Assembly: GCA_964374125.1 (NCBI GenBank)
Contig: CAYJXL010000003.1
Span: 1-40,539, forward strand
Source: Candidatus Woesearchaeota archaeon
Lineage (GTDB): Archaea > Nanobdellota > Nanobdellia > SCGC-AAA011-G17 > UBA489
Reading direction: 5' to 3'
Length of the DNA: 40,539 bases
Of the stretch, positions 805-36,103 are shown piece by piece; position 1 is the first letter of the stretch; the number at the start of each line of letters is the position of its first letter. The notes beneath the pieces were generated by a model that was not told the DNA's origin, searched no databases, and saw only the letters and a list, made by a program, of their open reading frames with translations. Made by a program: the position numbers and the translations under genes.

Positions 805-1380
805 ATGCAAGCAGTCCTCATAGGCGTTTCGGACAGAACAGCGTTATGGCGTCACGGCAAACTCAAGGAAGAGGAATACGGAAAGTTCATCCACGCGTAT
901 GCTCGATTCACGGCAGATCATTTTGATAACATCATTGTAACACCTGACGATGGAGTCTATACTGATATTGCACTGGAGTTCGGACGCCTGAAGAACGTCA
1001 AACCGATTGCGTACTATCCAGATCGGGATGCTTTTTATGGCATTCGTCATATTGAACCAAACTTTCCCAGTTATGAGATTCGACCGATTGGAGGGGACTG
1101 GTATACATTGAATGCGGACTTGACGAAGCAAGCGCTTGTTGTTATTTGCTTAGGGTTCAGCCCTGGCGTTTTGATTGAGCTTGCGTTCATCAAATATCAT
1201 CAGACCTATGGCGGAAGGAAAGATCCGCGACTCAAGAGCATTCACTGCTTCATTGATGAACGATGCATCAAGGAACGGCTGCCTGGAACGTTTCATGAGC
1301 AGATCCAGAATCTGTATTACTACTCGAGCCTTGAGGAGCTTGATCGATTGCTTCAGAAATCTTTGCCGAATCTCCGGTAA
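805..1380 (+). CDS. Hypothetical protein; possibly a divergent LOG/SLOG-type Rossmann fold
   Basis: Long ORF. ATG at 805 lies 26 nt downstream of the TATA-like CAAATATAAAAC (773-784). The pattern TPDDGVYTDIALEFG...IAYYP...ALVVICLGFSPGVLIE loosely resembles the LOG-family GGxxG...PGGxGT layout. The fold assignment is weak. Confidence 0.5.
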   Translation: MQAVLIGVSDRTALWRHGKLKEEEYGKFIHAYARFTADHFDNIIVTPDDGVYTDIALEFGRLKNVKPIAYYPDRDAFYGIRHIEPNFPSYEIRPIGGDWYTLNADLTKQALVVICLGFSPGVLIELAFIKYHQTYGGRKDPRLKSIHCFIDERCIKERLPGTFHEQIQNLYYYSSLEELDRLLQKSLPNLR

Positions 1381-1505
1381 ATCTCTTTCTTTTTTCTGTT
1401 TTACTGTTGTTCTTTTTCATAATCCCGAATAGTCTTCCACTTGTCTGAATCTTTTCCTGATTCTTTTGGCAAACTCATATTAACGAGAATCTTTTATCTT
1501 TGTCC

Positions 1506-1802
1506 ATGATTGAACTTGAACTTTGGCTGTACGGAAAACCGTCGTGGGACATGCCTCTTGAGGGGAATCTTGCGATCAAGCCATCATTGCTTCGGAGAAG
1601 GGCGCGTTCGTTGTTCAAGCACCTTCATGAGGTTGCGGATGTTACCAGCGTGCTGTTGAAGCATGGATGGAAGGCGCATGGCACGTCGTACACGTTGAAT
1701 CTCTGCAAAAAAGATGTACAAACGAGAGCGCAGGCGCTGCAGGAGCTTCAACGTCTTGGCATCAAGCGCCGCTGCGTTGCGATTGCAGGTAGCGATGATT
1801 GA
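1506..1802 (+). CDS. Hypothetical protein, tandem paralog 1
   Basis: ORF MIELELWLYGKPSWDM...KHGWKAHG... aligns along its whole length with the next ORF. Its stop overlaps the next start (ATGATTGA). Confidence 0.55.
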   Translation: MIELELWLYGKPSWDMPLEGNLAIKPSLLRRRARSLFKHLHEVADVTSVLLKHGWKAHGTSYTLNLCKKDVQTRAQALQELQRLGIKRRCVAIAGSDD

Positions 1803-2106
1803 AGTCAATATTCCGTTGTTCGGAATGGCCAGCATGGAGATGGAGATTGCCGGCGAACAGTTTATCGAGCCTGATCTTTTTCGACTGAAGGGGCTGGAGC
1901 TTTTGGATCGACTAAATCGCGTGGCGGAGATCGTTGAGACCATGAAAAAGGATGGCTGGTCCATTGTCGGTGAGGTGTTCAATCTTTGCGCGTATTATGA
2001 GCGCATCACAAGCGTTGAGGAAGCGAAGAGGCGCTTAGAGAAATTAATGATTGCACCCGATGAGGTCTTCATTACTGAATTTGACGAATGCACGCAGGAA
2101 GAATGA
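1795..2106 (+). CDS. Hypothetical protein, tandem paralog 2
   Basis: Internal ATG at 1795 gives MIEVNIPLFGMASMEM...KKDGWSIVG..., colinear with paralog 1 (shared MIE, F/YG, GW..G, L..L.I). The upstream part of the track ORF (1714-1794) overlaps paralog 1 out of frame. Confidence 0.55.
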   Translation: MIEVNIPLFGMASMEMEIAGEQFIEPDLFRLKGLELLDRLNRVAEIVETMKKDGWSIVGEVFNLCAYYERITSVEEAKRRLEKLMIAPDEVFITEFDECTQEE

Positions 2107-2306
2107 TGGATGCAGATAGCCTCAATGCAATAGGAACAGCGGTCATTGCGTTAACGATATCAATAGGAGTTTTATCAACATTCGTTTACTATCTTGCGAA
2201 TATCCAGGGAATGCATTTATCGGTACTTATATTAACAAGCTCATGCTATATCATTACAGTGATGCTCTCCGTAAAGTATTTTAAAAGAGGAGTAAAGAAT
2301 GTATAA
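2103..2306 (+). CDS. Small membrane protein (two predicted TM helices)
   Basis: ATGA start/stop overlap with the upstream gene at 2103-2106. Hydrophobic segments AIGTAVIALTISIGVLSTFVYYL and LSVLILTSSCYIITVML. Confidence 0.45.
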   Translation: MMDADSLNAIGTAVIALTISIGVLSTFVYYLANIQGMHLSVLILTSSCYIITVMLSVKYFKRGVKNV

Positions 2307-2391
2307 CTTTATTAAATGGTTCAAAGAAAACTGGGAAGTTGTCATTGTAATACTATTCATATTGTTCCTTCAATACCTAATTGCGAAGTGA
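2299..2391 (+). CDS. 30-aa single-TM peptide (MYNFIKWFKENWEVVIVILFILFLQYLIAK)
   Basis: Below the ORF-track cutoff. GAGGAG Shine-Dalgarno at 2287-2292, 6 nt before the ATG. Shares the W(F/V)KENW-plus-TM design with the next ORF. Confidence 0.4.
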   Translation: MYNFIKWFKENWEVVIVILFILFLQYLIAK

Positions 2392-2531
2392 TAAATGCTG
2401 TGCATAAGCTACACAAAAATCAAAGTATCGTTGTAAAGTTCGCTCTTTGGGTCAAAGAGAACTGGATGATAGTTGTTGCAGTCTTGGTTATGTACTTCGT
2501 TGCACTCTTTACTTTTGGCGTTATTCGATAA
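2388..2531 (+). CDS. Approx. 47-aa single-TM peptide, paralog of the previous peptide
   Basis: GTG at 2388 overlaps the previous stop (GTGA). C-terminal part reads FALWVKENWMIVVAVLVMYFVALFTFGVIR. The N-terminal part of the 2316 track ORF overlaps the previous peptide and is unlikely to be real. Confidence 0.35.
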   Translation: MINAVHKLHKNQSIVVKFALWVKENWMIVVAVLVMYFVALFTFGVIR

Positions 2532-2555
2532 AGAAGATGTTGTAAGCGAAGATTT

Positions 2556-2992
2556 TTGAATACCTACGAAAGCAAAGCCGATACGATTAAAGTTCGCCCG
2601 TATATAGACGAAGATTATGAAGCAGTCAAGCGTAATTTAGAAGAAGGTACTCTGTTCGATCCAACTCTGGACACACAAGGTACACTCGCAACAAAGATCC
2701 GAGACAGACCAGAGTCTATTCTTGTTGCTACTGTTAATGACATCGTTGTTGGTAGCGTTTATATCATTGAAGATCATTTATCTTTCGCCTCGTTGTTCAA
2801 AGAGGCTATCGGAAGCGGGGTATCGGATCAACGTTGATGAGAGCCGCAGAAGAACGACTGAGAATGAAGGGTATTCGCGACGTTGCATTATGGATTAGGG
2901 ATGGCGATAAGGAACTTCAAAAGTACTACGCGAGTTTAGGATATAAACCGATGAAACACTCGCACCAAGGTATGTACAAGGAATTATACTGA
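2556..2992 (+). pseudogene. GNAT-family N-acetyltransferase, frameshifted
   Basis: Frame 0 (TTG start) gives ...ILVATVNDIVVGSVYIIED and then nonsense. Frame 2 opens at 2771 with SFIFRLVVQRGYRKRGIGSTLMRAAEERLRMKGIRDVALWI...LGYKP (GNAT motif A, R-x-x-G-x-G) and ends with TGA at 2990-2992. The 1-nt frame change lies within about 2771-2777. Confidence 0.8.
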
Positions 2993-2993
2993 C

Positions 2994-3196
2994 TAGCGGG
3001 GGATGGAAAGTCATAGAGTCCAATCCGAACTTCTATTTTGAACCATCGACCCTCCCGACGTATGTTTTCGGGTGTCCAAGACAGCTTATGAGCCCATTCC
3101 GCTAGTTGTTCACTAGTGACGGACATTCAGGCACTTTCGTGTCTCCTGGCTGTCCTAATGCAGTTTGAAAAGGTGTTCCTTTATCAAATCCCCGCT
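2994..3196 (-). tRNA. Initiator tRNA-Met (CAU), apparently interrupted by six introns
   Basis: Minus-strand exons: 3196-3190 AGCGGGG; 3157-3142 TAGGACAGCCAGGAGA; 3124-3118 GTCCGTC; 3095-3087 GGGCTCATA; 3073-3068 ACCCGA; 3052-3037 GGGTCGATGGTTCAAA; 3007-2994 TCCATCCCCCGCTA. Joined they give a 75-nt cloverleaf with A1:U72, initiator-type GGG/CCC anticodon stem, CUCAUAA loop, UUCAAAU T-loop and A73. A TATA box lies upstream at 3229-3237. Confidence 0.6.
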
Positions 3197-3228
3197 ATAA
3201 GCCAGGATAAAGTAAAGCGCTACGCTCC

Positions 3229-3237
3229 TTTTATAAA
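3229..3237 (-). promoter_or_regulatory. TATA box (TTTATAAAA on minus strand) for the initiator tRNA gene
   Basis: Centre is 37 nt upstream of tRNA position 1, which predicts a leader of about 10 nt. An A-rich BRE-like AGAAACG lies immediately upstream. Confidence 0.5.
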
Positions 3238-3242
3238 CGTTT

Positions 3243-3251
3243 CTAGCAAAG
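3243..3251. repeat. Target-site duplication, left copy (CTAGCAAAG)
   Basis: Identical 9-mer at 5780-5788. The outer bases overlap the IR termini, so the true duplication is 7-9 bp. Confidence 0.75.
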
Positions 3252-3291
3252 TGCATTGTTGCATAAGCGGGAGTTATCTTAATTAAAAAAA

Positions 3292-3435
3292 TTATTTCTT
3301 CTTTGGTTTATTCCATCTAGCAGTTTTACATTTTGGGCAAATAAGAGGTCTCTCATCTCCCCTCTTCATCCATGTATGTCCACATTTTTCACACCTATAG
3401 ACTTCTTCATTTCCAAATACTTTCTGAATTGCCAT
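3292..3435 (-). CDS. 47-aa zinc-ribbon protein (IS passenger)
   Basis: MAIQKVFGNEEVYRCEKCGHTWMKRGDERPLICPKCKTARWNKPKKK, with a CxxC...CxxC arrangement. Below the ORF-track cutoff. A TATA-like box at 3455-3463 is centred about 24 nt upstream. Confidence 0.55.
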   Translation of the reverse strand: MAIQKVFGNEEVYRCEKCGHTWMKRGDERPLICPKCKTARWNKPKKK

Positions 3436-3473
3436 ACAAAATAGAAACAAATGTGATATATAAAGTTCACTAT

Positions 3474-3487
3474 TTAGGTTAACCTAA
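3474..3487. promoter_or_regulatory. Perfect 14-bp palindrome TTAGGTTAACCTAA, candidate operator
   Basis: Lies between the divergent zinc-ribbon and transposase genes. Shares TTAGG/CCTAA half-sites with the palindrome upstream of the IS-borne TrmB gene. Confidence 0.45.
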
Positions 3488-3546
3488 TAACCGAAATGTT
3501 TATATAGTAGTATTACCTAATAAGTATACCTATTAAGTAAATATAA

Positions 3547-3564
3547 GGGACTCCGGAGAGTCCC
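3547..3564 (+). promoter_or_regulatory. Hairpin GGGACTC-CGGA-GAGTCCC in the transposase 5' leader
   Basis: 7-bp GC-rich stem with a tetraloop, 23 nt upstream of the transposase ATG and downstream of the TATA-like GTTTATATAG (3498-3507). Its location is typical for translational control of transposases. Confidence 0.4.
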
Positions 3565-3586
3565 AATTTCACCCGTCGTCAAACAA

Positions 3587-4510
3587 ATGAAATCGATAAA
3601 TATAATCCAAGAGAAGTATAAAAAAGTTTCTTGTCCTGGTTGTAATTCTAATAAGTTAAAGAAAGATGGAAAAAGAAAAACTAAGAACAGAGGAAAGATT
3701 CAAAGATATAAATGTAAGGATTGTAATTTGAGATTTGTCCTTGATGATGGTTTTTACAGAATGAGGAACCACGAAAAGAAAATAACTCTTTGTATGGATT
3801 TATATTATAATGGAATGTCTTTTAGAAAAATCCAAGAACATCTGAAAGTATTCTATCCTAAAAATTGTCATTATTCTACTGCATATCGTTGGATAATCAA
3901 ATATTCAATGATGATTAGCAACTTAACGGACAAACTACAAAGTAAATCAGGAATTGAATTACAATCTGATGAGATGGAATATCAGAGAAGGGTAAGTAAA
4001 TATCAAAAAGGTAGGGAGCAGAATTGGTTCGTTGATGTGATGGACACAACAACTAGATTTATGGTTTCTTCTGGTTACATGAGAAGCAGAACAATAGACA
4101 ACATGGTTAAGGTTTTGAAAAGAGGAAAATTCGTAACAGGAAATCAGGTTAAGGTTATTACAACTGACGGACTTAAAGGTTATCCAAGAATGCTAAAGAA
4201 AAGTTTCGGGTTAAGGTCACATTGGAATCACAAAAGCCCGATTGTTCATAATGTTGTCATTGCATCTGAAAGAGGTTTTAATCACCCAATAGAAAGATTA
4301 CATAACTCAATTAGAGAACGAACAAAAGTCATGAGGGGATTTCATGGTTGCATGGAATCAGCGTCTGCAATAATGAAAGGATATGAAATCTATTATAATT
4401 TTATAAGAAAGCATCAAGGAATAAATTGTCGACCTTATGAGTTGGCTATTCCTGATTTAGAATTGAGTAAGAATAGATGGTTGGATTTGATTAAGATGTC
4501 TAAAGTTTAA
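3587..4510 (+). CDS. DDE transposase with N-terminal zinc finger (IS6/IS1-like)
   Basis: CPGC...CKDC zinc finger. DDE-type blocks SDEMEY, ITTDGLKGY, NHPIERLHNSIRERTKVMRGF and YNFIRKHQG. The family cannot be resolved by eye. Confidence 0.85.
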   Translation: MKSINIIQEKYKKVSCPGCNSNKLKKDGKRKTKNRGKIQRYKCKDCNLRFVLDDGFYRMRNHEKKITLCMDLYYNGMSFRKIQEHLKVFYPKNCHYSTAYRWIIKYSMMISNLTDKLQSKSGIELQSDEMEYQRRVSKYQKGREQNWFVDVMDTTTRFMVSSGYMRSRTIDNMVKVLKRGKFVTGNQVKVITTDGLKGYPRMLKKSFGLRSHWNHKSPIVHNVVIASERGFNHPIERLHNSIRERTKVMRGFHGCMESASAIMKGYEIYYNFIRKHQGINCRPYELAIPDLELSKNRWLDLIKMSKV

Positions 4511-6726: not shown

Positions 6727-7296
6727 ATGATACATATGGTTCAAAATAAGACCAATCTGGAATTAGAAATAATCCTTGCCTTATTAAAGAATAAAGCCCA
6801 TTTGAGAGGCATGGCAAGGACGCTCAATGAGTCGCATTCAACAGTCTTAAGAAAAATCAACGAGCTTCTCAAAAAGAACGTGCTGGACTACAAGAAAGAG
6901 GGCAGAAACAAGGTATTCTTTATTAAAAACAACTTAACGGCAAAAAATTACGTCTACTCTGCTGAGATTTATAAACTCTCAAAGATAATAGAAAAATACC
7001 GGGAGCTGAGCATAATCTTTGAGGACATCAAAAGACAATTTCAAAAAGGCATGATTATCTTGTTTGGCAGCTATGCAAAAGGGAATCCAAGGCAGGAAAG
7101 CGATATTGACATTTATCTCGAAACAACAGGCAGCGAGATCAAGAGCCGATTGCAGGAACTAAACTCAAAGCTGAGCATAAAGACTGGCAGGTTTGACGTG
7201 AGGTCGCTATTAATCAAAGAAATAATGAAGAATCATGTTATCATAAGAGGAGTAGAGGAATTCTATGAACGAAATGAATTTTTTAAGGAAGCTTAA
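6727..7296 (+). CDS. wHTH plus minimal nucleotidyltransferase (MNT antitoxin-like)
   Basis: NTase motif ILFGSYAKGNPRQESDIDIYLE preceded by a wHTH (RGMARTLNESHSTVLRKINELL). The start may be the ATG at 6736, which sits 27 nt from TATA CTTTTATAC (6705-6713). Confidence 0.8.
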   Translation: MIHMVQNKTNLELEIILALLKNKAHLRGMARTLNESHSTVLRKINELLKKNVLDYKKEGRNKVFFIKNNLTAKNYVYSAEIYKLSKIIEKYRELSIIFEDIKRQFQKGMIILFGSYAKGNPRQESDIDIYLETTGSEIKSRLQELNSKLSIKTGRFDVRSLLIKEIMKNHVIIRGVEEFYERNEFFKEA

Positions 7297-7759
7297 AAAT
7301 GAAGGCAAAATAGAGCTCGTCGAGCCGTCAGAGGAAATGAGATTGTCGTATCTCAAGAAATCTGAAGACTGCCTTATATCTGCAAAGATACTTCTTCAAA
7401 ATCAACTATACGAAAATTCCACATCAGAAGCTTATTATGGCATGTATAACGCCCTGCTCGCTCTTTTGTTCACAGTTGGAATAAAATCAGAGAATCATTC
7501 AGCATCGCTTCTCATCTTTAAGAACCTGTTTCACGAAGAAAGGCTGTACAAACTGGCCTCTCATGCTAAAGAAGAAAGAATAGACAAGCAGTATTATGTG
7601 GAAGCGCAGCAGGCGTCAAAAGCCAGCAAGGAGTCCTGCAGCGACATAGTCCTGAAAACAGAGGAATTCTTTGTTAAAATGAAGCTGCTGATCAGTCAGA
7701 TGAATAACGAAAAAACGAATGCTGCAAGGATCTCATTTCAGGAATTGTTTACGCAGTGA
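7265..7759 (+). CDS. HEPN-domain protein (toxin-like partner of MNT)
   Basis: Overlaps the MNT gene by 32 nt. All-helical HEPN-like sequence (LISAKILLQNQLYENSTSEAYYGMYNALLALLF...). The MNT-HEPN gene order is typical. Confidence 0.7.
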   Translation: MNEMNFLRKLKNEGKIELVEPSEEMRLSYLKKSEDCLISAKILLQNQLYENSTSEAYYGMYNALLALLFTVGIKSENHSASLLIFKNLFHEERLYKLASHAKEERIDKQYYVEAQQASKASKESCSDIVLKTEEFFVKMKLLISQMNNEKTNAARISFQELFTQ

Positions 7760-10987: not shown

Positions 10988-11929
10988 CTATAATAACTTT
11001 TCGGAGTGTAGGAATGACGCAAAGAGCTGTTGAACATCTGCAGGTGACCTCGTACTTGCGAGACTTGCGCGCAGTTTAGCGCTATTGCCTAAACCTCTTG
11101 TAAAGTCCATTGCGCGTTCCTTCATGATCTTTATTCGCGGACACTTTACAAGCTCGAGGTATTCCTGCAGCAGCTGCAGCTTCTCTTCTCTTGTTTGTTG
11201 TATGATTTCTCCCGTCTCAAAATAGTGCAGGATCTGCTTGAAGATCCATGGGTTGCTCTTCGCGGCACGTCCAATCATGACGTAATCGCATTTTGTGTAT
11301 TCAAGCATTTCCTTTGCTTTTTCTGGTGAGATGACATCGCCATTACCGATGACAGGAATGCTGATGGCCTGTTTTATTTCCTTGATGACGTCCCAATTTG
11401 CTTTTCCTGAATAACCTTGCGCTTGCGTTCTTCCGTGAATGGCGATTGCGGCAGCGCCTGCCTTCTCGAGCATCTTGACAATTTCAAGCGCCTCGACTTT
11501 CTTGAATCCTGAACGCATTTTTACTGTTATTGGTTTTTGGATGCTTGCGACGAGCGTCGCGATAATTTCGTATAACCTCTCTTTTTCCTGAAGCAAGGCA
11601 GAACCATAACCTTGCTGAACGATTTTTTTTGAAGGACAGCCGCAGTTGAGGTCGATGATATCAAAACTCTTTTCAAGCTTTCTTGCCGCTTCAACGAGAA
11701 TATCGGAGTTTCTGCCAAAGAGCTGCAAACCTACCGGCTTATCGTGTTCATTCGTCTTCGCAAGTTCTAGTGTTTTCTTGTTTTCACGAACGATCGCAAG
11801 CGATGAGAGCTGCTCTGTGTACGCCAGTGATGATCCATATCTTCGACAGAGCAACCTGAATGGGAGATCGGTCACTTCAGCCATTGGCGCCAGAATAAGC
11901 TTATTTTTTAGCTTTGGGAAGCTTTTCAT
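10988..11929 (-). CDS. dus: tRNA-dihydrouridine synthase
   Basis: Reads MKSFPKLKNKLILAPMAEVTDLPFRLLCRRYG...NCGCP...AIHGRT (Dus family) from the Met at 11929. The upstream 21 codons overlap the preceding gene. Confidence 0.85.
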   Translation of the reverse strand: MKSFPKLKNKLILAPMAEVTDLPFRLLCRRYGSSLAYTEQLSSLAIVRENKKTLELAKTNEHDKPVGLQLFGRNSDILVEAARKLEKSFDIIDLNCGCPSKKIVQQGYGSALLQEKERLYEIIATLVASIQKPITVKMRSGFKKVEALEIVKMLEKAGAAAIAIHGRTQAQGYSGKANWDVIKEIKQAISIPVIGNGDVISPEKAKEMLEYTKCDYVMIGRAAKSNPWIFKQILHYFETGEIIQQTREEKLQLLQEYLELVKCPRIKIMKERAMDFTRGLGNSAKLRASLASTRSPADVQQLFASFLHSEKLL

Positions 11930-12227
11930 TCTTGTTCTTTGAAGACGTCCCGGTTGCCTTGTACTCCTCGACAACCTTCTTGAAGGCTTCAACCTGTCTT
12001 TGAGTTAGCATGCCGGTGCGGATATAATGCGACTTGATGCTTCTGAGGAACTGGTTTTCATCGTACCATTTCTTGTCAATATCGAGCAGACTGCGATAGA
12101 ATGCGTTGCTGATGGGCTTATCGAAGTCCTTCATTTCGCAGTCCTTGCAGATGGGAAATTGACGGGCTGATAACATGAGCACCATGTTCTTCTTGCAGAT
12201 GACGCATCGCTGCTTGAATTTTGCCAT
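11901..12227 (-). CDS. Zinc-ribbon protein, hypothetical
   Basis: CVIC...CKDC motif followed by a basic tail. Overlaps the dus start, so the two look translationally coupled. Confidence 0.5.
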   Translation of the reverse strand: MAKFKQRCVICKKNMVLMLSARQFPICKDCEMKDFDKPISNAFYRSLLDIDKKWYDENQFLRSIKSHYIRTGMLTQRQVEAFKKVVEEYKATGTSSKNKNEKLPKAKK

Positions 12228-13919: not shown

Positions 13920-13992
13920 TGGGCCTGCTCGGATTCGAACCGAGGACCTCAACCGTGTGAAGGTTGCGTCATAGCCGCTAGACTACAGGCCC
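13920..13992 (-). tRNA. tRNA-Val (CAC), no intron
   Basis: GGGCCUG/CAGGCCC acceptor, anticodon stem CAACC/GGUUG with loop UUCACAC, T arm CUCGG-UUCGAAU-CCGAG, discriminator A. No encoded CCA. Confidence 0.9.
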
Positions 13993-15045
13993 GCAGGTGA
14001 TTATATTATCCTTGACCGTGAACTTCACTGGCAGAAACTGTTCGATGAGCCATATATTAGTTTTTGCATGCGTACTTAGATGAGGAATCGCAATCTTGCA
14101 TTCTTTTCCGCTTAAAGCCATGTACACGAGAAGCTGGTCTGCCATGTATTCATCGACGGCGCAATTCATGCGCATTTGCGCTAACAATCCTTTGGCTGCT
14201 TCCTGCCCAACAGCTTCGCTTGCTTTATTTCTTTCGCCTAGCGCGTCCCATGCTATGATGCAGTTTTCGTAGACTGCCTTCAATAGTATTCCACAGCCTG
14301 GATTTAGTGTTTGTTGATATTCCTCAACAATGGAAATTGGCTGATTGATACTGATCGTTTTCTCGGCACTTTCACGGATTCTTTCGCAAACGCGCTTTTT
14401 TCGCAGATCAGAACTCGCAACAACAACGCCCTCGATGCCCAACAATGCTCCGCGTTCAAGCAAGGTTGCACTGCTTGTTTCTTTCACTTTTTTCACGAGA
14501 ACATTGACGTCGGCGCCACCCTTTGGATAAAAACCGTGCCTCTTCGTTGCAATGTGCATCTGAAAGCCAAGCTTCTTCATCATGGGCACAAGTACCTCTT
14601 GAATGTACAGGATATTTGGCGCATGCGTTCCAAATGTTCCGCCGCCAGTAACATGAATGCTGACATCAGATGCCCCATAGAAAGATGGCAATGCCAAGCA
14701 CTGCAGCAGAAGCCCAACGCTGCCAGCGGTTTCGACGTGGACATTTAATTCATTCTTATATTCTGACCTCGGGTGAAAGATAATTTCCGATGAGCCGAGT
14801 TTTGCTCCTTCCAATGAACCATTGCAAAATTCTTTCACGGCCTCAATTGCGCGGAGATGCTGCGTTCGCAAGCCGCTTTCTTTTCTTTGGCTTCGAATGC
14901 TATAGACTCGGACTGGCTTTTGCGCGATACATGAAAGGGCGACGCTCAAGCGGACAATAGAACCGCCCCCCTCCAAGTGATTACCGGGAATTGCCAGCAT
15001 GGACGTTCCTTCGCTTATGGAGCTTAAAATGCTTCCTATAGCCAT
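13978..15045 (-). CDS. rtcA: RNA 3'-terminal phosphate cyclase
   Basis: LEGGGSIVRLSVALSCIAQKPVRVYSIRSQRKESGLRTQHL and overall colinearity with RtcA. An alternative start is the Met at 15000. The last five codons overlap tRNA-Val. Confidence 0.85.
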   Translation of the reverse strand: MAIGSILSSISEGTSMLAIPGNHLEGGGSIVRLSVALSCIAQKPVRVYSIRSQRKESGLRTQHLRAIEAVKEFCNGSLEGAKLGSSEIIFHPRSEYKNELNVHVETAGSVGLLLQCLALPSFYGASDVSIHVTGGGTFGTHAPNILYIQEVLVPMMKKLGFQMHIATKRHGFYPKGGADVNVLVKKVKETSSATLLERGALLGIEGVVVASSDLRKKRVCERIRESAEKTISINQPISIVEEYQQTLNPGCGILLKAVYENCIIAWDALGERNKASEAVGQEAAKGLLAQMRMNCAVDEYMADQLLVYMALSGKECKIAIPHLSTHAKTNIWLIEQFLPVKFTVKDNIITCGPVV

Positions 15046-20034: not shown

Positions 20035-20734
20035 CTGAGCTTTTGTACTTGAGGGACAGCTATGCAAGAGAATTTGACGCAATGGTCACTGCGGTCAATG
20101 GCAAAGAGGTCATATTAGACAGGACGTATTTTTATCCAAGCGGTGGCGGGCAGCCTTTTGACACAGGCACGATTTCAACTGGCGGCGCTTTCTATTCTGT
20201 CGTGAATGTTCATAAGGGCGAGCATGGCGTTGTTCATGAACTTGATCATGACGACCCCAAGGTCGGCGATGTTGTCCATGGGGCTATTGATTGGGAGCGG
20301 CGGTACAAACTGATGCGGTTTCATACTGCAATTCACGTCCTTGTTGGCGTTATTTGCAATGAAACTGGCGCGCTGATTACCGGGAACCAGATTGACGTTG
20401 ACAAGAGCCGGATCGACTTCAATCTTGAGATTTTTGATAGGGAAAAGATGCAGGAACACTTTGAGAAGGCGAATGCGATTATCCAGCAGGATTTGCCGGT
20501 AACGGTGACGTTTACGACGAGAGAGGAGGCGTTGCAGATCCCTCGTTGTTCAAGTTGCTGAAGGGGTTTCCTGAGCACATCAAGGATATCAGAATCGTTT
20601 CTCTTGGCGAATTTGACCGGCAGGCAGATGGCGGAACGCACGTGCGATCAACGAGAGAAATCGGGAAGGTTGAGCTTTTAAGCTGCGAGAACAAGGGAAA
20701 GAATAATCGGAGGGTTTATTTTCAATTACTCTAA
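20031..20734 (+). pseudogene. alaX: AlaX-type alanyl-tRNA editing protein, frameshifted
   Basis: Frame 0 carries the HTAIHVL (HxxxH) core and stops at 20561. Frame 2 continues PSLFKLLKGFPEHIKDIRIVSLGEFDRQADGGTHVRSTREIGKVELL... to 20734. The junction is near 20536-20545. ATGA overlap with the upstream gene at 20031. Confidence 0.75.
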
Positions 20735-21406
20735 TCTTTTTTCCAAACCTTCGCCGACAAACTGGTTTCTGCCCCGTTGCTTTGCAATGCGTACTCTTGT
20801 GTCTGCTTTTTCCCTGAGATCAGAAATTTGCGCAAGAGGGTAAAAAGAACCACCAACGCTGATAGTGACGTTTTTATAATCACTCCCTTGCTTATAATGA
20901 ACGCCTGTGAACCTTTTGGCAAGATTCTGAGGTAAGGCGATTTGTTGATTGCGGACAACGTTAACTAGACGTTCGCCGTATCTCTCGAATAAACTAAAAT
21001 CCAGATCTCTTTTGACAACAATAAACTCTTCACCACCCCATCGCCCCATGAAATCACCAGTGCGAGGATCGAGACTGAGCGAAAGCGCAGAGGCGGTATG
21101 TGCCAATGCTATGTCTCCTGCGTCGTGACCATATGCATCATTATAACGCTTGAATTCATCAAAGTCAACGACATAGAAGCTGACTGTGCTGCCAGGTCGT
21201 TGTTTTCTGTTGAGATGTTCCTCGAGATAGCGAACAAGAAAGCGCGGGTTGAAAATTTCAAGATCGGGCACAAATTGACGTATCTTTTGATCATACATCA
21301 CTTCGGCTCGTACAATGTCCGCATTGGCAGGATCTAGAAGCGAAAGTTGCCTCAGTGCTGACAAAGGGTCAGTCTTTCTTCGTTGCGGTATATTCATTAC
21401 TTTCAT
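20726..21406 (-). CDS. GGDEF-domain diguanylate cyclase (stand-alone)
   Basis: DFDEFKRYNDAYGHDAGDIAL, I-site RTGD five residues before the A-site GGEEF, then SVGGS...ADTRVRIAKQRGRNQF. TATA TTATAAATAA (minus strand, 21431-21440). Confidence 0.85.
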   Translation of the reverse strand: MKVMNIPQRRKTDPLSALRQLSLLDPANADIVRAEVMYDQKIRQFVPDLEIFNPRFLVRYLEEHLNRKQRPGSTVSFYVVDFDEFKRYNDAYGHDAGDIALAHTASALSLSLDPRTGDFMGRWGGEEFIVVKRDLDFSLFERYGERLVNVVRNQQIALPQNLAKRFTGVHYKQGSDYKNVTISVGGSFYPLAQISDLREKADTRVRIAKQRGRNQFVGEGLEKRLE

Positions 21407-36001: not shown

Positions 36002-36103
36002 CGGGCCCAGTGGGATTTGAACCCACGACCCTCTGGTTTCTCACTCGGTGTTAAGAGCTTCATCCTTTTTGTCAGATGCTCCACCAAGCTGAGCTATGAG
36101 CCC
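36002..36103 (-). tRNA. tRNA-Lys (CUU) with two 14-nt introns flanking a 5-nt anticodon micro-exon
   Basis: Minus-strand exons 36103-36071, 36056-36052 (UCUUA) and 36037-36002. Acceptor GGGCUCA/UGGGCCC (one G:U), D arm GCUC-AGCUUGGUG-GAGC, anticodon stem UCUGA/CCAGA (A31:C39 mismatch), loop CUCUUAA, T arm GUGGG-UUCAAAU-CCCAC, G73. Confidence 0.75.

Follow-up and report, generated by a model that had tools for sequence, protein, structure and literature searches.

A candidate initiator tRNA-Met gene with six short bulge-helix-bulge introns in a DPANN archaeon

The window analyzed here is a stretch of 40,539 nt from a Candidatus Woesearchaeota archaeon, with a G+C content of 44.7% and an RNase HII whose homologues belong to DPANN archaea labelled Woesearchaeota or Nanoarchaeota. 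On its minus strand, between 3196 and 2994, seven short blocks follow one another in 5'-3' order and, once joined, give a 75-nt sequence identified by ARAGORN as tRNA-Met(cat), the cloverleaf being perfect. Archaeal initiator tRNAs are marked by A1:U72 and by three consecutive G:C pairs closing the anticodon loop, and the joined sequence has the CAU anticodon, A1:U72 and G29-31:C39-41. The unspliced DNA of the locus yields zero ARAGORN calls and zero Rfam matches, both at the gathering threshold and with E up to 10; over the whole window, these searches recover only a tRNA-Val (13920-13992) and a 102-nt tRNA at 36002-36103. The exons are 7, 15, 8, 9, 7, 15 and 14 nt long and the introns 32, 17, 22, 13, 15 and 29 nt; introns account for 63% of the gene, and three internal exons in a row measure 7-9 nt each. 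All seven exons are colinear on one strand within 203 nt; the gene is thus neither split (trans-spliced) nor permuted. Self-splicing introns of group I or II, which require a ribozyme core of hundreds of nucleotides, were considered and rejected, given intron lengths of 13-32 nt and the lack of any intron family among Rfam matches up to E 10.

Reading along the minus strand, on which all the following features lie, a TATA-box-like element (TTTATAAAA, 3229-3237), read directly and present where the earlier note had placed it, precedes tRNA position 1 by 33 nt and may serve as the promoter. Exon 1 (AGCGGGG, 3190-3196) supplies tRNA positions 1-7 and is followed by intron 1 (3158-3189; 32 nt at position 7/8), with a relaxed bulge-helix-bulge (BHB) of the HBh' type that combines a 4/4 central helix, GCGG/CUGC, with a 5-bp inner helix, UUUGA/UCAAA. 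Between exon 2 (TAGGACAGCCAGGAG, 3143-3157, positions 8-20a) and exon 3 (TGTCCGTC, 3118-3125, positions 21-28) lies intron 2 (3126-3142; 17 nt at 20a/21), which has a full hBHBh' motif with a 2-bp outer helix, a 4/4 central helix CAGG/CCUG and the inner hairpin CAC-GAAA-GUG. Intron 3 (3096-3117; 22 nt at 28/29) is again of the HBh' type, with UCCG/CGGA paired 4/4 and the 5-bp inner helix CUAGU/ACUAG, and leads to exon 4 (GGGCTCATA, 3087-3095, positions 29-37), which carries the anticodon CAT. Intron 4 (3074-3086; 13 nt) occupies the canonical 37/38 site, where a relaxed BHB has CUCA/UUGG paired 3/4 and an inner helix of 1 bp; its outer helix is the anticodon stem itself (3 bp plus a fortuitous U-G pair), and placing the intron at 38/39 instead gives the same product. 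This motif is the weakest among the six. Exon 5 (ACCCGAA, 3067-3073, positions 38-44) is followed by intron 5 (3052-3066; 15 nt at 44/45), an HBh' motif with CCCG/CGGG paired 4/4 and 2 inner bp; the 3' strand of the anticodon stem (C39-G42) takes part in this central helix. Finally, intron 6 (3008-3036; 29 nt at 59/60) separates exon 6 (GGTCGATGGTTCAAA, 3037-3051, positions 45-59) from exon 7 (TCCATCCCCCGCTA, 2994-3007, positions 60-73) through an hBHBh' motif that comprises the 5-bp T stem as the outer helix, UUCA/UGAC paired 3/4 and the 4-bp inner helix UAGA/UCUA. CCA is not encoded.

The surroundings of this gene are crowded and partly degraded. A convergent GNAT acetyltransferase gene (2556-2992, plus strand) has its stop codon 2 nt from the tRNA gene; it is split by a 1-nt frameshift, with the N-terminal part in frame to a stop at 2837 and the motif-A region (GYRKRGIGSTLMRAAEE) and the C-terminal part in another frame, and the same frameshift is present in an independent Logan assembly (L133). 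On the other side, an insertion sequence extends over about 3252-4510, with its boundary about 15 nt upstream of the TATA-like box, and comprises a Zn-ribbon ORF (3292-3435, minus strand) and a DDE transposase gene (3587-4510, plus strand); no clear terminal inverted repeats were found in it. A copy with 84% identity occurs in a different context (L001, SRR22388212). The Zn-ribbon ORF belongs to the insertion sequence and therefore is no synteny marker. Elsewhere in the window, a gene for RtcA, the RNA 3'-terminal phosphate cyclase, directly adjoins the tRNA-Val(CAC) gene (13920-15045, minus strand), and a dihydrouridine synthase gene lies at 10988-11992. A nucleotidyltransferase and HEPN gene pair (6727-7759, plus strand) forms a typical toxin-antitoxin-like module, and a GGDEF (diguanylate cyclase) domain protein (20726-21406, minus strand), unusual in an archaeal genome, may be of bacterial origin. 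The 102-nt tRNA at 36002-36103 (minus strand) is a tRNA-Lys(CUU) with two 14-nt non-canonical BHB introns (36072-36059 and 36050-36037), both in the anticodon stem, the removal of which leaves a 75-nt cloverleaf; it was missed by ARAGORN and detected by Rfam as one long match of 48 bits. This gene with its two short BHB introns implies that the genome splices short non-canonical introns.

Splice sites in the initiator gene were placed by the canonical archaeal 3-4-3 bulge-helix-bulge, in which both strands are cut 3' of the second nucleotide in a bulge of 3 nt and the central helix is formed by pairing between the 4 nt just ahead of the 5' bulge and the 4 nt just ahead of the 3' bulge. This rule is based on the canonical 37/38 geometry, for which it reproduces 31:39 as the last anticodon-stem pair, and on agreement with the mature sequences of relatives. 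All six junctions show a BHB or relaxed BHB precisely where one is required: within every intron, the 4 nt just ahead of the final two bases pair with a 4-nt segment of the upstream exon that stops two bases short of the exon end. The central helix is complete (4/4) in introns 1, 2, 3 and 5 and has 3/4 pairs in introns 4 and 6; the outer helix is missing at three junctions, and a central-helix mismatch is present at two. For introns 1-3, the local minimum-energy folds are exactly the BHB, whereas in that of intron 5, the helix is longer and the 5' bulge is hidden.

The earlier note, made from the letters alone, had read the locus as an initiator tRNA-Met gene divided by six introns but could not verify BHB motifs by eye; its reading is supported by the ARAGORN call on the joined exons together with the motifs at 6/6 junctions. 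The seven blocks are present on the minus strand as it had written them, and so are the hairpins it had listed within the introns, but two of its by-eye junctions yield no BHB and were replaced, each moving by 1 nt. Intron 2, which had been assigned to 21/22, keeps its length of 17 nt and shifts to 20a/21 (3142-3126), making position 21 U rather than A; intron 5, assigned to 43/44, keeps its 15 nt and shifts to 44/45 (3066-3052), with the variable loop becoming AGGUC rather than GGGUC. The corrected mature sequence is AGCGGGGTAGGACAGCCAGGAGTGTCCGTCGGGCTCATAACCCGAAGGTCGATGGTTCAAATCCATCCCCCGCTA, and its minimum-energy fold is the cloverleaf. Both features that follow from the BHB-derived junctions, U21 and AGGUC with A44, match all the 75-nt uninterrupted relatives (...GGAGTG..., AGGTC) among the matches listed.

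Free picking of blocks from 203 nt leaves much latitude, and therefore, we used a query independent of the locus, namely, an initiator gene that is free of introns and occurs on two metagenome contigs (L039/L058). Spliced alignment of this query to the locus scores 117, with six introns, against a null, obtained from 90 tiles of 300 nt each taken elsewhere in the window on either strand, that reaches at most 42 with free jumps (mean 24, s.d. 9) and at most -4 with jumps restricted to BHB-compatible pairs (mean -23, s.d. 8). Among random window junctions of the same lengths, 0.54% pass the strict BHB test and 1.4% the loose one; these rates put the probability that all six junctions pass at about 9e-12 and that of at least four strict passes, with a perfect central helix, at about 1e-8. 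In addition, the Logan assembly of run ERR4904392 (the L133 mentioned above) matches the window from 1136 to 3802 with a sole mismatch at 3358; all 203 nt of the locus are identical in it, and it also spans the frameshifted GNAT gene and the insertion-sequence junction. The locus is more than chance.

The corrected mature sequence differs by 1 nt from a gene in a Woesearchaeota MAG that is interrupted only at 59/60 (L128) and by 3 nt from the fully uninterrupted L039/L058, two of these differences being a compensatory D-stem pair (A12:U23 vs G12:C23). A metagenome scan with the 3' 29-mer returned at least 120 contigs, and many of the matches are bacterial-type fMet genes with encoded CCA and the same 29 nt; the 29-nt 3' segment GGTCGATGGTTCAAATCCATCCCCCGCTA is identical in these bacterial-type genes and in DPANN archaeal initiator genes. 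Among the matches listed, L008, L011, L016, L024 and about 60 others are uninterrupted tRNA-fMet genes of this bacterial type, with a mismatched position 1 and encoded CCA. Unrestricted spliced alignment placed four to five spurious introns upstream of such genes and was dropped; the jumps were then restricted to BHB-compatible pairs. A second scan, through GTDB, for which an insert of 11-41 nt at 59/60 was required, recovered five DPANN MAGs (Aenigmatarchaeota, Woesearchaeota and Micrarchaeota by label), in which the initiator gene has at most four introns.

Introns in the relatives were counted by a profile search with BHB-restricted jumps, in a sample that reflects the two search patterns and should not be taken as a census. 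Among the matches listed, the archaeal-type initiator genes that could be resolved include 20 with no intron, 13 with one, three with two, six with three, two with four (L067 and L131) and none with more than four; L034, L102, L127 and L033/L065/L074 are among the DPANN initiator genes with three or four BHB introns. The relatives use ten intron positions, 7/8, 10/11, 14/15, 15/16, 20a/21, 29/30, 32/33, 37/38, 43/44 and 59/60, which match the window at 7/8, 20a/21 (as in L129, at the site of intron 2), 37/38 and 59/60 and fall, at 29/30 and 43/44, 1 nt off the other two sites of the window. The two four-intron genes differ in their sets, with introns at 14/15, 32/33, 37/38 and 43/44 in L067 and at 29/30, 37/38, 43/44 and 59/60 in L131. 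Moreover, an identical mature sequence occurs with differing sets of introns, that is, none in L113, one in L130, three in L034, L102 and L127, and four in L067.

The 7/8 intron of L031 (26 nt, ATTTGTTAATCTTTAACAAACCGCAA) has its ends in common with intron 1 of the window, and the 59/60 intron of L128 has ATAGAA...CTATGA in common with intron 6. Across genomes, introns at these two sites keep their ends and hairpins and differ in their interiors, and, on this evidence, the 7/8 and 59/60 introns of the relatives look homologous to those of the window. The conserved exons, the diverged intron interiors and the differing intron sets imply that these introns evolve fast and yet stay spliceable and that their presence and absence turn over quickly. 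No orthologue with the same six introns was found among the matches listed. Synteny through the relatives of the RNase HII gene does not extend to the locus: for those with 80% identity, colinearity stops at window position 2531, and the contigs do not reach as far as the tRNA gene. Phage records yielded no similarity.

Taken together, these observations make it quite likely that the minus strand of 3196-2994 is a functional, cis-spliced initiator tRNA-Met gene of a DPANN (Woesearchaeota/Nanoarchaeota-type) archaeon, with six BHB introns. A precursor of about 210 nt would be transcribed from the TATA-like box; the archaeal splicing endonuclease (EndA) would cleave every 3-nt bulge 3' of its second nucleotide, the seven exons would be joined by an RtcB-type ligase, and RNase P and RNase Z would trim the ends, followed by the addition of CCA. 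No EndA or RtcB gene was found within the 40-kb window. Introns 1, 2, 3 and 6 have local motifs that do not overlap and could form and be cut in the primary transcript. Those of introns 4 and 5 compete for C39-G42 and are mutually exclusive, and intron 3 interrupts the 5' strand of the anticodon stem, which is the outer helix of intron 4; introns 3 and 5, therefore, are probably removed before the weak intron 4. With three junctions devoid of an outer helix and two with mismatched central helices, the endonuclease would have to tolerate relaxed motifs; DPANN enzymes with this ability are on record. Several observations count against a functional gene. The precursor conformer with five BHBs has a free energy of -50.0 kcal/mol, about 24 kcal/mol above the minimum-energy fold at -74.2 kcal/mol; no oligo-T terminator follows A73, unlike in the relatives compared; the surroundings, with the frameshifted GNAT gene and the insertion sequence, are degraded; and the motif of intron 4, with 3/4 central pairs and a 1-bp inner helix, is relaxed.

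These same features bear on the most durable of the alternatives, under which the locus is a redundant or recently inactivated copy, once a real multi-intron gene, and another, intact copy now supplies the cell. The energy gap of the five-BHB conformer, the missing T-run terminator and the degraded neighbors keep this explanation alive, and the weak motif of intron 4 and a view of the genome that spans 40 kb add to it. Nevertheless, neutral decay would strike first the 75 exon nucleotides and the 24 central-helix pairs, whereas 75/75 exon positions are intact, all stems pair and the mature sequence has a single difference from L128, compared with which the homologous 59/60 intron has diverged heavily; the BHB motifs, likewise, are intact at 6/6 introns. 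Perfect exons along with six intact motifs argue against long-standing decay. DPANN genomes, furthermore, are small and normally contain few tRNA duplicates. On balance, we regard a redundant or dead copy as unlikely.

Considerably less probable still is a functional gene in which some of the pieces, for instance, intron 4 or intron 5, are handled by another activity or in which an insertion is kept in the product. It is for these two introns that such a suggestion has some appeal: intron 4 forms 3/4 central pairs and a single inner pair, the minimum-energy fold of intron 5 hides its 5' bulge, and the two motifs exclude each other. However, the canonical-site introns in the initiator genes of the relatives are equally relaxed, with 2-3/4 central pairs, retention of intron 4 or 5 would destroy the anticodon arm, and we know of no pathway for tRNA intron removal in archaea other than the BHB endonuclease. 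A chance arrangement of tRNA-like blocks or an assembly chimera, finally, although free block-picking does overfit, as the spurious introns at uninterrupted fMet genes demonstrate, is effectively refuted by the alignment null, the BHB statistics at six fixed junctions and the identical sequence in the second assembly.

If the locus is a functional six-intron gene, as we consider likely, its place in the biology of the organism becomes the next question, and here, we incline, by a slight degree only, to the view that it is the only initiator tRNA gene of this archaeon and the far end of a rapid, hitherto undescribed turnover that BHB introns undergo in the initiator tRNA genes of DPANN archaea. 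In that case, each translation initiation would depend on twelve endonuclease cuts and six ligations per 203-nt precursor, and the occurrence of identical mature sequences with 0 to 6 introns, at a dozen positions, would point to a mechanism by which introns are actively gained and lost or, alternatively, to selection for fragmentation of the initiator gene, for instance, against elements with tRNA genes as their integration sites. A gene with six introns would raise the ceiling for introns in a tRNA gene and would do so in an essential initiator tRNA. Standard finders would miss such genes completely, as ARAGORN and Rfam both did here, a point relevant to the tRNAs reported as missing from DPANN and Asgard genomes (PMC5829648) and to estimates of MAG completeness. 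The relatives with the same mature sequence and 0, 1, 2, 3, 4 or 6 introns form a natural series for the study of BHB-intron gain, loss and spliceability, and the locus itself is a demanding substrate with which to address the specificity and cutting order of the DPANN splicing endonuclease.

Fragmentation of tRNA genes takes several forms in archaea. Split and tri-split tRNAs occur in Nanoarchaeum equitans, the initiator tRNA included, and in Caldivirga maquilingensis, and permuted tRNAs exist as well. The present locus resembles these in the fragmentation of the tRNA and in the predicted BHB-like joining by the same endonuclease and ligase; it differs in that its seven pieces are colinear within 203 nt, rather than encoded at separate loci or in permuted order. 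A closer likeness is found in Thermoproteales (Pyrobaculum, Thermofilum, Caldivirga), where the genes have colinear cis exons, short canonical and non-canonical introns, a BHB or relaxed HBh'/hBH motif per junction and sequential removal where motifs overlap (Sugahara et al. 2007/2008, cited in PMC4090602 and PMC8450103). These genes belong to Crenarchaeota rather than DPANN and have at most three introns (PMC8450103), against six here. Three was also the published maximum that the earlier note gave, in agreement with the tRNAscan-SE 2.0 paper (2021), which puts the upper limit for archaeal tRNA genes at three introns (PMC8450103); beside this figure stands a supplementary table on Asgard archaea with up to four intron columns per gene (PMC11291895). 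In the Asgard Atabeyarchaeia and Freyarchaeia, which represent another phylum, introns interrupt the majority of tRNA genes, often at non-canonical sites, over half have multiple introns, and the initiator gene has three (PMC11291895, 2024). Full-text searches of the literature yielded no report of more than four introns in one tRNA gene.

Outside archaea, Cyanidioschyzon merolae offers a comparable case: the D arm, the 37/38 site and the T loop of its tRNA genes can harbor ectopic BHB introns, for which the order of removal has been established by experiment; these are nuclear genes of a eukaryote, with at most three introns compared to the six of the present locus (PMC3728597). A counterpart within DPANN is ARMAN-2 (Micrarchaeota), which shares with the locus introns at 59/60, introns of 13 nt and relaxed motifs, and in which two introns lie only 6 nt apart in one T loop; its genes contain one or two introns each, as opposed to six, and its epsilon2 endonuclease cleaves a 13-nt hBH intron at 59/60 in vitro (PMC3239211). 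More generally in DPANN, alpha4 endonucleases with the L3 loop are reported to accompany increased disruption of tRNA genes (PMC5829648). Against this background, the locus stands out by how far it is fragmented, its six introns being more than the literature we found reports for any tRNA gene; the mechanism would be the ordinary archaeal BHB pathway.
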